Below are positions 5,145 through 52,041 of a stretch of 64,000 nt of DNA, piece by piece (position 1 is the stretch's first letter; each line of letters starts with the position of its first letter). A program made the position numbers and the translations under genes. The stretch covers positions 1 through 64,000 of IMG/VR virus record IMGVR_UViG_3300025096_000006. One strand, written 5' to 3'. Under the pieces are notes generated by a model. That model did no database searches. It worked only from the letters and a program-made list of their open reading frames with translations, and was not told the DNA's origin. The stretch is from a virus.

Positions 5145-5151
5145 TAAATAG
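5145..5151 (-). promoter_or_regulatory. Putative late promoter motif CTATTTA (tape measure)
   Basis: Recurring intergenic motif, ~30 nt upstream of the ATG. Confidence 0.5.
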
Positions 5152-5176
5152 TTTCATAAAAAAAAGCAAGACAGAA

Positions 5177-12991: not shown

Positions 12992-13114
12992 TTAGCTTTT
13001 GGCGCCCTTAGCTGCTCCCTTAGCTTTGGGTGCTGCCTTCTTGGCTGCTCCTTTTGCCTTGGGTGCTGCCTTTTTAGGGGCTTGTCTTACTTTGGCCCAT
13101 GGAAATAATCTCAT
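12992..13114 (-). CDS. Small basic Lys/Ala/Pro-rich peptide (40 aa, histone H1-tail-like)
   Basis: Manual translation MRLFPWAKVRQAPKKAAPKAKGAAKKAAPKAKGAAKGAKS*; AAGGATAAGGTG SD 6 nt upstream; followed by a terminator; below the ORF track size cutoff. Confidence 0.75.
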   Translation of the reverse strand: MRLFPWAKVRQAPKKAAPKAKGAAKKAAPKAKGAAKGAKS

Positions 13115-13150
13115 TTTTTCACCTTATCCTTTTTTAGTTTGTTTTTTGTT

Positions 13151-13984
13151 TTATCTTTCCATACAACATCTGATATAGTCAACGCTTACTGTGTTAGCAG
13201 CACCCTCTCGGGCTGCAACGCTGATGTAAGGAAAGACAATTGTTCCGTCAGGAAAGCCAGTAGTTCCTCTACCAACAGTAGCCTTTAAAGAGCCGTTGAC
13301 ATAAGCTTTTATATCAGGTCCGCTGAAGTAAAAACTAAGAGTCATGTATGTGTCATCTACTACTGTGTGGCTGAGCGATGTGGCGGTCTCGTTATCGTCC
13401 TCAGCTGTTAAAAGCGTGAGAACTTCGGAAGCGGCGCCATCGGCAACGTAAAATCCGCATGCATCTTCAATATCAGCACCGTCTGCATCAGTTTCTTCGG
13501 AGCCGGCGGCTGAACCAAGACCGATAAAGAAACCAGTACCAGAAATATCACTAGTTTTAATTCTACATTCCCACCAAATATTTCTTGCCGTTGAAGAACT
13601 TGTATCGAACTTAAAGCAATGGTTGATTGCTGTCATAAATGTTGCCTCGTTATCACCCGTGCCATGAAGAATTTCAAGAATACCGCCGGGGAGCGCGGCA
13701 TCAATAGTGATTGTATCGCTCGTTCCGGTCGACACATTGGTACGCCAAACAATGTTATCGATGGCAGTTGCTTGCGCCAAAGACTCACCAGCACCTACTC
13801 CTGTTGAGCCGTTTGCAACCAGGAAGTCGTCCATAAATCCCCAGTACTTTGCGGGCTGTAGCTCCCATGCAGGCATATCAAAGCCTGTCTTTCCTGATCT
13901 ATCGCCGGTAGTATCGGCTGAGAGTGCGTTCATTCTTTTAAGAACGGTCTCAAGGCGCTTAGCACCTAATCTTCTATTTCCCAT
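13151..13984 (-). CDS. Capsid-adjacent virion protein (possible decoration protein, beta-rich ConA/LamG-like)
   Basis: Immediately downstream of the major capsid gene; alternating beta-strand patterns (WWECRIK, GFFIGL, YMTLSFYF, VSVDYIR); strong AAAGGAG SD. Confidence 0.45.
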   Translation of the reverse strand: MGNRRLGAKRLETVLKRMNALSADTTGDRSGKTGFDMPAWELQPAKYWGFMDDFLVANGSTGVGAGESLAQATAIDNIVWRTNVSTGTSDTITIDAALPGGILEILHGTGDNEATFMTAINHCFKFDTSSSTARNIWWECRIKTSDISGTGFFIGLGSAAGSEETDADGADIEDACGFYVADGAASEVLTLLTAEDDNETATSLSHTVVDDTYMTLSFYFSGPDIKAYVNGSLKATVGRGTTGFPDGTIVFPYISVAAREGAANTVSVDYIRCCMER

Positions 13985-14117
13985 AATTTAATTTCTCCTT
14001 TTATTATGTTATTGCAATAACTTGATTTTACTCAATGATTCTATTCCAGCCACTTCGAAATAGGGTCTTTCTGTGGGCAGTGGCCTCGCCCAAAGGAGAA
14101 TAATCTCAAGTCACTAA
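13985..14117 (-). ncRNA. Structured 5' leader RNA with kissing loops and anti-SD (candidate cis-regulatory switch)
   Basis: Closing helix AGUGACUUGA (14115-14106):UCAAGUUAUU (14025-14016); hairpins UGGGC-GAGGCCACU-GCCCA and CUAUUUC-GAAGUGGCU-GGAAUAG with complementary loops; UUCUCCUUU (14100-14092) complementary to the SD AAAGGAGAA (14001-13993). Confidence 0.6.
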
Positions 14118-14124
14118 TAAATAG
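14118..14124 (-). promoter_or_regulatory. Putative late promoter motif CTATTTA (starts the structured leader)
   Basis: Between the capsid terminator and the first base-paired segment of the leader. Confidence 0.55.
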
Positions 14125-14132
14125 CACCAACA

Positions 14133-14172
14133 AATAGAAAACTCCCACCTAAGTTGCCCTAGGTGGGAGTTT
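14133..14172 (-). terminator. Rho-independent terminator after the major capsid gene
   Basis: AAACTCCCACCTAGG-GCAA-CTTAGGTGGGAGTTT: long stem, GNRA tetraloop, U-rich tail. Confidence 0.85.
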
Positions 14173-14200
14173 GAGTATCTAACTTAGTTAGACTTGTCTA

Positions 14201-16027
14201 TTATAGACCAGCCTCACCAATGAGTCCGCGAACGATAACGAGACCGTACATATCAGGACGAACCATCTTCTTGGCATAACGAGTCATGACTCCCTTACGG
14301 GGCACGAAGTCCTCTGGTCCAAAGATGGTAGGTGTGGTCTGCAGTGGTACGTAAGGTGCGTACACATATCCGCTTTCAAGGAAAGAGGATCCGCGACGAC
14401 CAACGAGAACCACGTTGCGCAGGAAGTAGGGGTCAACAATAACGTCATACTTCTTGCTCAAGGAACCAGCCTTGACAGCACCAACAGAGCCCTTGGCATC
14501 ATCCATTGCGACACTTGCACGGAAACCGGAAGTGAACTCAAGGATGTTAGCAACCTCTGGGGAAACCACCAAGAAGTTAGCTCCACCACGAAGAGTCTTT
14601 CTGTGGATCTGGGCAGAAACATCGTTAATTGTCTCAACGAGAGTCTCATACCACTCGCTAACCGTACCAGTGAAGTCGGGAGCAGCAGAGCTAGCACCGA
14701 TTTCTGCACCAGTAACGCGGTTCACGAACAGACCTGGAGAACGAGACCAGTAGTAAGTAGCTGCTGTAGCACCATTCACAAGGTCAGCAAGGACCTCGCG
14801 ATCGATTTCGAGAGCAATCTGCTCCGAAAGGATGCTTGTAAGCTCGACCTCCGCATCAAGGTTGTGGTAGGCATTAAGATCTTGTCCTAATTCCGGCGTC
14901 CACTTAGCCTTGAGCTTCTTGGTCTGAGCGGTAACAGCAATGCTATCCACCTTGATGTCGATCTCAGGGATGAATTCGTTGGATTCAAGTCCCCAGGATG
15001 TAGCACCAACAACCGCACCAAGGGCAGTTGCGTTTGTAAGCTTATCCTTGAGAGGATAGCTAAACTCACCAGTAGCAATACCGGTAGCGCTGCTCTTGTC
15101 AGTATTACCAGCAGTTAAAGAACCACCAGCCATAGCTAAGACGACTCTGAGAGCCTTGTTAGTAAGAGTGGCATCAGCGGCAGCAATACGACTAGTCAAA
15201 CGACGAATCTGCTTCTGAAAGTCGGCACCAGCCGCGTCAGCAACAGCATCCAACGTTGCCAAAGCTGTGTCGCTAATTACGAATGCTCCGAGATTGTCGA
15301 AGTCCATGTAATCAACACCACGTGCGTCAGCAAGATCAGCCTCATCTATATCCATAATAACAATACCAATTGAAGAATCGGTGGACGAGAGAAGATCAGC
15401 ATCATAGTCGATAAGCTTTTTGTTAGCTTCAGTGACAGCACCATCAAGCAAGAATGCACCCATAACTGTGATGCTAGCCTGAGTAATATTAGCGTCGTTA
15501 CTTCCGGTTGGGGACGAGTAGTTGTAACCCATGGCAGTACGAGGACCACCAAAGTCTTCGGCATAAGTGCCTCCGACAAGATCCACACCCGAAACGATTT
15601 CGCTACCAACCTGATTAGTACCATAGATCGACTTGTCGACTGTGTTACCAGTTCTGGCGGCTAGGGTTCCGGAAGCGCCAATATCAGGCGAGTACACGAA
15701 GTCCAGGAAGAAGATGAGCCCACTTGGCAGACTCATGGGCTGAACACTAACGAGATCGTTAGCAACCAGACCGGCGAAAACACGACGGACGATGGGGAAT
15801 GCGACGGCTGCGAAACCTTCAACATCTCCAGCAGCCATACTGCTACTCTCGCGAAGAAGCTCCTTAGCCTGATTCTCTAAGAGTCGAGCCATGGTGCCTT
15901 TCTTACGATCATCTCCAAGACCCTCTAAGAGTCCTGTGCGCTCCCACTTTGATAACAAAGCATGACCTTCGGAGCGCATATTACGGTCAACAATACCTTC
16001 TGTCAACCTTTCAACAATACCAGACAT
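14201..16027 (-). CDS. Major capsid protein (T4 gp23-like)
   Basis: LSKWERTGLLEG, ARLLENQ, LVSVQPMSLPSGLIFFLDF, TKKLKAKWTPELGQDLNAYH, YAPYVPL, PRKGVMTRY. Confidence 0.97.
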   Translation of the reverse strand: MSGIVERLTEGIVDRNMRSEGHALLSKWERTGLLEGLGDDRKKGTMARLLENQAKELLRESSSMAAGDVEGFAAVAFPIVRRVFAGLVANDLVSVQPMSLPSGLIFFLDFVYSPDIGASGTLAARTGNTVDKSIYGTNQVGSEIVSGVDLVGGTYAEDFGGPRTAMGYNYSSPTGSNDANITQASITVMGAFLLDGAVTEANKKLIDYDADLLSSTDSSIGIVIMDIDEADLADARGVDYMDFDNLGAFVISDTALATLDAVADAAGADFQKQIRRLTSRIAAADATLTNKALRVVLAMAGGSLTAGNTDKSSATGIATGEFSYPLKDKLTNATALGAVVGATSWGLESNEFIPEIDIKVDSIAVTAQTKKLKAKWTPELGQDLNAYHNLDAEVELTSILSEQIALEIDREVLADLVNGATAATYYWSRSPGLFVNRVTGAEIGASSAAPDFTGTVSEWYETLVETINDVSAQIHRKTLRGGANFLVVSPEVANILEFTSGFRASVAMDDAKGSVGAVKAGSLSKKYDVIVDPYFLRNVVLVGRRGSSFLESGYVYAPYVPLQTTPTIFGPEDFVPRKGVMTRYAKKMVRPDMYGLVIVRGLIGEAGL

Positions 16028-17226: not shown

Positions 17227-17233
17227 TAAATAG
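17227..17233 (-). promoter_or_regulatory. Putative late promoter motif CTATTTA (scaffold-capsid)
   Basis: Recurring intergenic motif; also at 22307, 26421, 37669, 52015 and 57029. Confidence 0.55.
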
Positions 17234-17268
17234 TATTTCTATGGCGAAAAAGCAATATATTATTACTA

Positions 17269-26394: not shown

Positions 26395-26430
26395 TTTTTA
26401 TCTCCTAGTTGTGCTTAATATAAATAGTCG

Positions 26431-51995: not shown

Positions 51996-52041
51996 TTATT
52001 AACTCCTCTCTTGATAAATAGTTGTATTTTTTTATCTTTCA

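Follow-up and report, generated by a model that had tools for sequence, protein, structure and literature searches.

A kissing-hairpin leader RNA with a Shine-Dalgarno complement downstream of the major capsid gene of marine T4-like phages

Introduction

In MS2, the leader of the maturation gene holds an upstream complement of the Shine-Dalgarno (SD) sequence that closes a cloverleaf; an earlier structure delays this closure and only nascent RNA is translated, a delay that limits the minor virion protein (the maturation or A-protein) relative to the coat protein (PMC4615214). Here we describe a structured leader RNA that also carries an SD complement, encoded at positions 13985–14124 on the minus strand of a 64,000-nucleotide (nt) stretch of viral DNA (positions 1 to 64,000 of IMG/VR record IMGVR_UViG_3300025096_000006, hereafter the window), between the gene of a Gp23-type major capsid protein and the gene of a 277-residue protein. 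Comparison of about 85 distinct versions of this leader, all from marine T4-like phage contigs in IMG/VR, indicates a stem of two helices, P1 and P2, leading into a three-way junction whose two arms, P3 and P4, are locked together by a kissing helix of seven base pairs (bp).

Among described systems, the MS2 maturation-gene leader is the closest in working and the aptamer of the purine (add) riboswitch the closest in shape, and the leader described here is a member of neither. In a way that would recall MS2, a long-distance SD complement may close a multi-hairpin domain, and a mutually exclusive structure predicted to form early would hold part of that complement. Sequence and structural homology to the MS2 leader are absent, and the setting differs, being the messenger RNA (mRNA) of a T4-like double-stranded DNA phage made from its own putative promoter rather than a replicating genome. 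The hairpins are moreover locked by the kissing helix, and a long closing helix would take the early role that a small metastable hairpin has in MS2. Leaders of maturation genes in MS2 and Levivirus are said to have been studied by Groeneveld in 1995 and by van Meerten in 2001.

With the purine riboswitch (RF00167), and especially its adenine-binding add member, the leader shares a P1 helix, a three-way junction, two parallel hairpins with a loop-loop contact and conserved junction strands; as in the translational add riboswitch, translation would be controlled by alternative pairing that involves the SD. It differs in giving no RF00167 match (cmscan, E up to 10), in its extra helix P2, in the SD complement placed inside the junction, in a loop-loop contact that is a 7-bp Watson-Crick helix of 9-nt loops, in arms of unequal length (4–5 versus 7–8 bp) and in a gene context that suggests no ligand.

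Loops of 9 nt with two unpaired 5' purines followed by six to seven pairing bases are also found in the retroviral dimerisation initiation site (DIS) and in the RNA I/RNA II complex of ColE1, and here too stacking of the loop-loop helix between the stems is expected. A likeness to DIS had been proposed in the original prediction, which was made from the letters of the window alone; it holds for the loop geometry and fails for the partners, since DIS loops are self-complementary and join two molecules, whereas GGCCACU and AGUGGCU differ from one another and complement each other within one molecule. DIS-like self-complementarity is confined here to a separate 14-nt palindrome. Oligomers of the kind formed by phi29 pRNA had been offered as an alternative, and that phage RNA, also about 120 nt long, likewise has a three-way junction and a pair of complementary loops. 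The alternative is unlikely: pRNA is a free transcript that builds portal rings by intermolecular pairing, whereas the leader is contiguous with the SD, AUG and open reading frame of an mRNA, has no terminator of its own, and nothing indicates that it exists as a free RNA.

In T4, the gene 32 leader contains a pseudoknot operator, and the ribosome-binding sites of soc, e and gene 49 are masked in long transcripts. As in those T4-type phages, structure in the mRNA close to a late promoter would here govern the translation initiation of a late or structural gene. The mask of soc and e lies upstream of their late promoter and is absent from late transcripts, whereas here it lies inside the late transcript; there is no similarity to the gene 32 pseudoknot. 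We class the leader as a new RNA family whose functional kind is known and whose architecture is unusual; it appears to unite the outline of a riboswitch with control of a ribosome-binding site by sequential folding of the MS2 type. Few other mRNA leaders have an internal, long Watson-Crick kissing helix that compensatory evolution demonstrates. Confirmation would reveal how an optional, rapidly swapped capsid-surface protein is adjusted in amount after transcription by large DNA phages; it would also supply folding-kinetics studies with a compact, natural two-state RNA, and metagenome and metatranscriptome surveys with a conserved marker of this phage group.

Results

A widespread leader family absent from Rfam

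Searches of IMG/VR with the capsid protein returned more than 590 loci, the best 80 of which are 58–72% identical, and searches with the 277-residue protein returned two loci only; tblastn recognised the latter protein in 3 of 82 fetched loci. The leader itself was detected by blastn in nine of these loci at 76–93% nucleotide identity, with the similarity starting exactly at a late-promoter-like CTATTTA motif. Because it is found where the 277-residue protein is mostly unalignable and the capsid protein has diverged to the extent given above, the non-coding leader is better conserved than both flanking genes. Two pattern scans of IMG/VR, the first leaving the two central bases of each loop free and the second unconstrained in loops and stems, yielded 79 distinct full-length versions; a covariance model added one divergent member, L020 (58.9 bits), and a third scan, for a GGCCGC/GCGGC loop variant, recovered five further members. 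In the window, as in the whole record from which it was taken, the covariance model finds a single copy.

The same GGCCGC/GCGGC variant gave at least 120 GC-rich chance matches in a metagenome scan, with no true member among the matches listed. A blastn comparison of the region with 50,697 records of cultured phages showed no relatives, only chance matches of 30–40 nt to the A-rich SD region. In line with the original prediction, the RNA matches no known Rfam family, in that a cmscan search of positions 13000–15000 against Rfam 15 gave no minus-strand match at E up to 10. Sub-threshold plus-strand matches to RefA9 and RsaJ on the neighbouring terminator, and a glutamine-II match at E = 9, were treated as chance. 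The leader is a widespread RNA family in abundant uncultured marine T4-like phages that is absent from Rfam.

Covariation of the stems and of the kissing loops

A model-based alignment of 80 sequences was used for all pair counts and for the covariation score. Across the five helices together, 92% of cells pair and 19 pairs show changes on both sides, and the covariation score of 0.346 compares with 0.171 for shuffled alignments (none of 500 reaching 0.346) and with at most 0.084 for slid registers. In a structure-blind MAFFT alignment, the top values of corrected mutual information fell on five P4, two P3 and two loop-loop pairs, which are 94–100% canonical. The stems and loop-loop pairs are thus kept by compensatory changes in related contigs, the check that the original prediction had proposed.

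The closing helix P1 pairs AGUGACUUGA (14115–14106) with UCAAGUUAUU (14025–14016) over 10 bp, including two G-U pairs. It had been placed immediately after the promoter; the helix is present, and 2 nt separate it from CTATTTA. Pairing is retained in 88% of cells, mostly through one-sided changes among G-U, A-U and G-C, and its 3' strand overlaps the 5' half of the palindrome in every clade. The inner pairs have been replaced compensatorily in L408, L409 and L020, the first two of which carry AAGA/UCUU and GAGA/UCUU instead of UGA/UCA. Further inside lies P2, formed by UUAUUC (14098–14103), whose last three bases (UUC) are common to the SD complement, and GAGUAA (14028–14033); 81.5% of its cells are paired and five of its six pairs show compensatory changes, the extreme case being UUCUGG/CCAGAA in L020. 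Since P2 is hard to align, an alignment-free test was run, in which cognate arms paired at -10.55 kcal/mol and non-cognate arms at -9.21 kcal/mol, a difference reached in none of 5000 permutations.

Both predicted hairpins with 9-nt loops covary. P3 (GGGC/GCCC, 14075–14091) carries the loop L3, GAGGCCACU (14087–14079), and is paired in 99% of cells with compensatory changes in three of four pairs, G-C being replaced by A-U, U-A and C-G; its loop measures 9 nt in 79/79 versions. P4 (CUAUUUC/GGAAUAG, 14041–14063) carries the loop L4, GAAGUGGCU (14056–14048), and is paired in 94.5% of cells with compensatory changes in six of seven pairs. The complementarity of the two loops over 7 nt, GGCCACU:AGUGGCU with one G-U, also covaries: the loop-loop helix (14079–14085 with 14048–14054, together spanning 14048–14085) can form as 7 bp in 80/80 sequences, with compensatory changes in two of its seven pairs, one position being A-U in 66, G-C in 13 and C-G in 1, and another C-G in 72 and G-C in 8. 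Seven loop-pair combinations occur among the homologs, whose loop bases had been left free in the search patterns, and both loops have 9 nt in 78/79 versions, each opening with two purines left unpaired before the seven bases that pair. A G-U occupies one kissing position in 80/80 sequences, and G-U pairs are frequent elsewhere in the fold; as G-U would become C-A on the opposite strand, the fold belongs to the sense RNA and not to the DNA.

Three strands of the junction are conserved: UCUCC(U)n, the purine-rich linker with an AGAAAG or UGAAG core, and UCAUUGA or its variants. The linker J3/4 of 10–11 nt, ACAGAAAGACC (14064–14074), joins the kissing hairpins and would have to span the stacked rod of P3, kissing helix and P4 if the kissing is intramolecular. 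On the other side, J4/2 (AAUCAUU) together with the 3' strand of P2 occupies 14028–14040, where UCAUUGA is conserved and UUCGUGA and CUCGAAGA occur as variants. The linker and J4/2 blocks change together (14064–14074 and 14034–14040), YAGAAAG occurring with UCAUUGA, and UUGAAG with UUCGUGA or CUCGAAGA; this hints at a tertiary contact or an alternative pairing between J3/4 and J4/2, such as UGAA/UUCG in the second block. A correlation between stem length and linker length was dropped, being trivial by construction, and a leader peptide was ruled out, given that the element contains neither an ATG nor an SD and that its indels do not come in threes.

The Shine-Dalgarno complement and two competing predicted folds

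Inside the junction, UUCUCCUUU (14100–14092) is the exact complement of the SD region AAAGGAGAA (14001–13993), which contains GGAG at 13995–13998 and lies 8 nt before the AUG of the downstream open reading frame at 13984. We refer to this strand, J2/3, as the anti-SD. Its YCUCC core is kept in all members, a GGAGG SD accompanies three of the four CCUCC variants, and an anti-SD:SD duplex of -10.9 kcal/mol on average is available in every one of 84 homologs. Cognate anti-SD:SD partners pair slightly better than swapped ones (0/5000 permutations).

Two folds of the leader can be drawn around the same kissing-hairpin core, each with a closing helix that excludes the other. In the ON fold, P1 and P2 would be formed, the 5' end paired, the anti-SD unpaired in the junction, and the SD and AUG exposed in a single strand rich in A and U; in the OFF fold, the anti-SD would pair with the SD, the palindrome would form a hairpin and the 5' end would be free. 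Such a pair of competing folds had been proposed, and both are available in 80/80 homologs. In the window they are nearly isoenergetic, at -37.4 kcal/mol for ON (P1 and P2 formed, SD free) and -36.7 kcal/mol for the best fold with anti-SD:SD pairing forced, in which P3 and P4 persist, the palindrome folds into its hairpin and the 5' arm is released. Over the 80 homologs, the energy of ON minus that of OFF is +3.7 +/- 1.7 kcal/mol (range -0.5 to 7.5), with ON defined by leaving the SD unpaired, because forcing P1 and P2 from alignment columns gave spuriously poor ON energies in about 22 sequences. The mean probability of anti-SD:SD pairing in the unconstrained ensemble is 0.68.

The computed order in which the folds become available would resemble that in the MS2 leader: a transcript ending just before the SD adopts the P1 fold, with P2, in 76/80 homologs, whereas the minimum free energy (MFE) fold of the full leader contains anti-SD:SD pairing in 70/80. 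Along a direct path from ON to OFF, the computed barrier averages about 9.7 +/- 2.5 kcal/mol, and reaches 12.9 kcal/mol in the window, which as a rough estimate would correspond to refolding times of seconds to hours. The covariation of P1 and P2 gives good support to the ON fold as a product of selection; the OFF fold is suggested by the invariance of UCUCC, by the conserved overlaps of P2 with the anti-SD and of P1 with the palindrome, and by the energies.

The perfect palindrome GUUAUUGCAAUAAC (14021–14008), which overlaps the 3' strand of the closing helix as predicted, has an even perfect counterpart of at least 12 nt in 83/85 members. At least six forms occur (GUUAUUGCAAUAAC, GGUUAUUGCAAUAACC, AAGUUAUCGAUAACUU, (U)GGUUACGUAACC(A), GGUUAACGUUAACC and GGUUAUCGAUAACC), and in every one the 5' half equals the outer part of the 3' strand of P1. 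As a hairpin the palindrome is marginal, at -1.6 kcal/mol, compared with -16.3 kcal/mol for a self-duplex. Its centre is self-complementary in every variant (UGCA, UCGA or ACGU), although a hairpin loop needs no such centre; this superfluous self-complementarity makes RNA-RNA dimerisation, or an origin by inverted duplication, conceivable. A dimeric DNA-binding protein at this site was rejected, the gap between GUUA and UAAC ranging from 2 to 6 nt. We regard the palindrome as the OFF-state hairpin, and its use as a self-dimer site as having a low probability.

Every pairing and feature listed in the original prediction was found at its place on the minus strand, and the observation is confirmed; its interpretation is partly supported, in that the two folds find support; a ligand or protein is one candidate for what would flip them.

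A leader that may gate translation of the post-capsid gene

The reading that we favour, and that we hold to be about evenly poised between right and wrong, is that of a cis-acting 5' leader of about 130 nt that gates translation of the post-capsid gene. The junction strand UCUCCUUU, which complements the SD of that gene and has three bases in common with P2, would be its switching element. Transcription finishes P1 and P2 before it reaches the SD, so that each nascent transcript would start out ON; it would later relax, or be driven, into the equally or more stable OFF fold. Switching OFF would limit the yield per transcript and so set the amount of the lectin-like, putatively capsid-associated product relative to the capsid protein. 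The rate could be set by time alone, by ribosome occupancy, by a protein, by a small ligand in the junction or by the pairing of two leaders through the palindrome, and sequential folding alone, ON first and OFF later, could explain the design. A quite improbable variant makes the leader a sensor of message concentration and time, in which two leaders with opened P1 pair through their palindromes and both tip into the SD-masked fold. Translation of the capsid-surface protein would then be turned off once late mRNA has accumulated, which, if true, would be an RNA-only feedback in a DNA phage.

Several points weigh against gating by the two folds. Folded as a single sequence, the 161-nt leader region is unremarkable (MFE -36.7 kcal/mol, z = -1.49, with 14 of 200 shuffles folding as well), and in the window itself the MFE is, marginally, the ON fold. 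The advantage of cognate anti-SD:SD partners is small, 0.4 kcal/mol, and the permutations ignore phylogeny. Column-wise covariation of anti-SD and SD is uninformative, the SD being out of register and both sides barely varying, and with two nearly invariant partners covariation cannot prove their pairing; UCUCC could instead be conserved for a tertiary contact or for a protein. The energies are nearest-neighbour values; the nested model behind them takes no account of the kissing helix, Mg2+ or tertiary structure, and P1 and the anti-SD:SD helix could coexist as a pseudoknot, which would shift the balance. In contigs from four marine metatranscriptome runs, the element of relatives is covered in two runs only, at a depth of 2–7; such contigs cannot show start, strand or level, and may reflect DNA carry-over, so that they are no evidence on transcription.

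Other leaders at the same place bear on the choice between explanations. Nearly all relatives have a post-capsid gene with the layout of terminator, CTAYTTA, structured leader, SD and AUG GGN, and in other clades at least three further types of structured leader occupy this position, each starting with a stem after CTAYTTA (examples among loci L004–L082 are L011:2993–3132, L036:1895–2033 and L004:3199–3380). In the 5' hairpin of type B, CCUUU pairs with AAAGGAGAAA, a sequence identical to the SD, and types C and D contain CCCAU or CCAnAGUUA (CCAAAGUUA), complementary to the AUGGG start region. Judged from these sequences, a complement of the initiation region inside a late-promoter transcript appears to be the common theme, realised by different RNAs, which favours general translation control and argues against a single metabolite signal.

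The leader type also tracks the N-terminal peptide of the encoded protein, which is MGNRR with the present type (A), MGTKRVGWARI with B and MG[TS]KRVGLAR with C and D. This link is one of the attractions of a riboswitch-like or protein-responsive ON switch, in which the junction, braced by the kissing loops, would bind a small ligand or a protein of phage or host that stabilises P1 and P2 and keeps the anti-SD off the SD; the product's own conserved basic N-terminus, MGNRRLG.KR, is one candidate binder. UCUCC, AGAAAG and UCAUUGA are strongly conserved between covarying stems, as in an aptamer, the overall shape of P1 plus two hairpins with a loop-loop contact is that of the purine riboswitch, and the OFF fold is favoured by about 3.7 kcal/mol in the model, so that something may be needed to hold the leader ON. 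Yet common descent alone may account for the association with the peptide type, Rfam aptamers go unmatched up to E = 10, a late structural gene offers no obvious metabolite to sense, and the unrelated, simpler leaders that relatives use before the same kind of gene are hard to fit to one metabolite. We consider such a switch unlikely, if still worth weighing.

A similarly low probability attaches to the leader being a static 5' stabiliser or insulator that guards the mRNA from 5'-end-dependent decay and holds the A/U-rich initiation region open so that expression is high, with the anti-SD incidental or engaged in a tertiary contact. All leader types in the gene family start with a stem right after the presumed transcript start, and in the ON fold, which is the MFE of the window, the first transcribed bases are paired and the SD and AUG free. 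A simple hairpin would suffice for this purpose, as types B and C illustrate, and the static reading leaves unexplained the invariant 6–9-nt SD complement that overlaps P2, the bases that P1 and the palindrome consistently have in common, the narrow ON/OFF gap across the 80 homologs and the anti-initiation sequences of the other types.

That the functional state is an association between RNAs, either pRNA-like rings or dimers through intermolecular loop pairing or DIS-like pairing of leaders through the palindrome, seems to us highly improbable. The palindrome does stay perfect, its centre included, through at least six forms, its self-duplex is far more stable than its hairpin, the variable spacing of GUUA and UAAC speaks against a dimeric DNA-binding protein as the cause, and the loops, with their 9 nt and two unpaired purines at the 5' side, are like known kissing loops. 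The element is nevertheless part of an mRNA leader without its own terminator, and L3 and L4, which complement each other and not themselves, sit on neighbouring hairpins whose connecting linker is of conserved length, an arrangement that fits intramolecular pairing. In type B an ordinary, non-palindromic hairpin stands in the palindrome's place, L020 has no long palindrome, and perfect palindromes could arise by template switching at the DNA level. A self-cleaving ribozyme or other processing element, or a DNA-level signal, is the least credible reading: three helices with a distal loop-loop contact do recall natural hammerheads, but the hammerhead core (CUGANGA / GAAA / UH) is absent from junctions that read UCUCCUUU, ACAGAAAGACC and AAUCAUU, Rfam ribozyme families are unmatched at E up to 10, and the many sense-strand-specific G-U pairs exclude a DNA signal.

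Genomic setting and the presumed promoter

The window belongs to a 108-kb IMG/VR record of an uncultured marine T4-like phage, estimated to be 59% complete, and its minus strand carries every gene. The major capsid gene (16027–14201, minus strand) encodes a 608-residue Gp23-type protein (Pfam PF07068, E = 1.7e-73; PHROG 138) whose nearest cultured relatives are those of Flavobacterium phage vB_FspM_immuto (45.6% identity), Microcystis phage Mel-JY01 and Rhodothermus phage RM378. Its stop at 14201 is followed by an intrinsic terminator (14172–14139, minus strand; a 15-pair stem, a 4-nt loop and a T-rich tail) that is found at the same place in all relatives. Every member of the leader family is preceded by such a terminator and CTAYTTA and followed directly by an SD and AUG, with no terminator of its own.

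CTATTTA (14124–14118) presumably drives the leader transcript, and its C1, T2, A3, T5, T6 and A7 are invariant in 79 homologs. If transcription starts 5–7 nt past the motif, the first transcribed bases are those of the 5' strand of P1. The leader had been described as unusually long, and its 133 nt from motif to AUG are indeed exceptional; ten other intergenic copies of CTAYTTA lie 16–50 nt before start codons, a range that had been given as 18–51 nt. Sites of the promoter-like motif in the window number 20 (for example at 5145–5152, 17227–17234, 26421–26428 and 52015–52022), and ACTAYTTA, the extended form, occurs 15 times, against 4.7 expected, with 14 copies on the coding strand. CTAYTTA-type motifs are unlike the T4 late promoter TATAAATA; TATTTA and TAAATA are reverse complements of each other. 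Strong SDs precede 14 of 50 genes in the window, which rules out a Bacteroidetes-style host without SDs in which this one would be special.

A probably swappable protein downstream of the leader

The putatively regulated gene (13984–13151, minus strand) encodes a 277-residue protein whose N-terminal peptide begins MGNRRLGAKRLE. AlphaFold2 predicts a basic N-terminal helix (residues 8–20), a disordered linker (28–77) and a beta-sandwich, with a predicted local distance difference test (pLDDT) value of 69 and a predicted template-modelling (pTM) score of 0.72; in this model the C-terminal 200 residues form a concanavalin A (ConA)-like jelly roll. Laminin_G_3 (PF13385) is present in distant homologs of the protein, which itself matches nothing in Pfam or PHROG. 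Foldseek ranks PL7 alginate lyases, GH16 glucanases (laminarinases) and legume lectins highest (E about 1e-7, TM 0.45–0.6), so that the protein may bind or cut algal or bacterial polysaccharide. Most likely, to judge by the model, it is an optional, swappable glycan-binding protein anchored by its conserved N-terminus; the position of its gene suggests a location on the capsid.

Among relatives (loci L002–L080; 13984–13900 in the window), the post-capsid proteins have in common a basic N-terminus, MG[NTS][KR]R[LVI]G.(A/K)R, and are wholly divergent in the rest of their 120–280 residues. On sequence grounds, the gene looks like a conserved cassette for anchoring and expression with swappable cargo domains.

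The 3' end of the capsid gene of relatives (corresponding to 14201–14500 of the window) reaches summed depths in the hundreds in contigs of the four marine metatranscriptome runs, and this heavy coverage indicates that the phage group is common in seawater RNA libraries.

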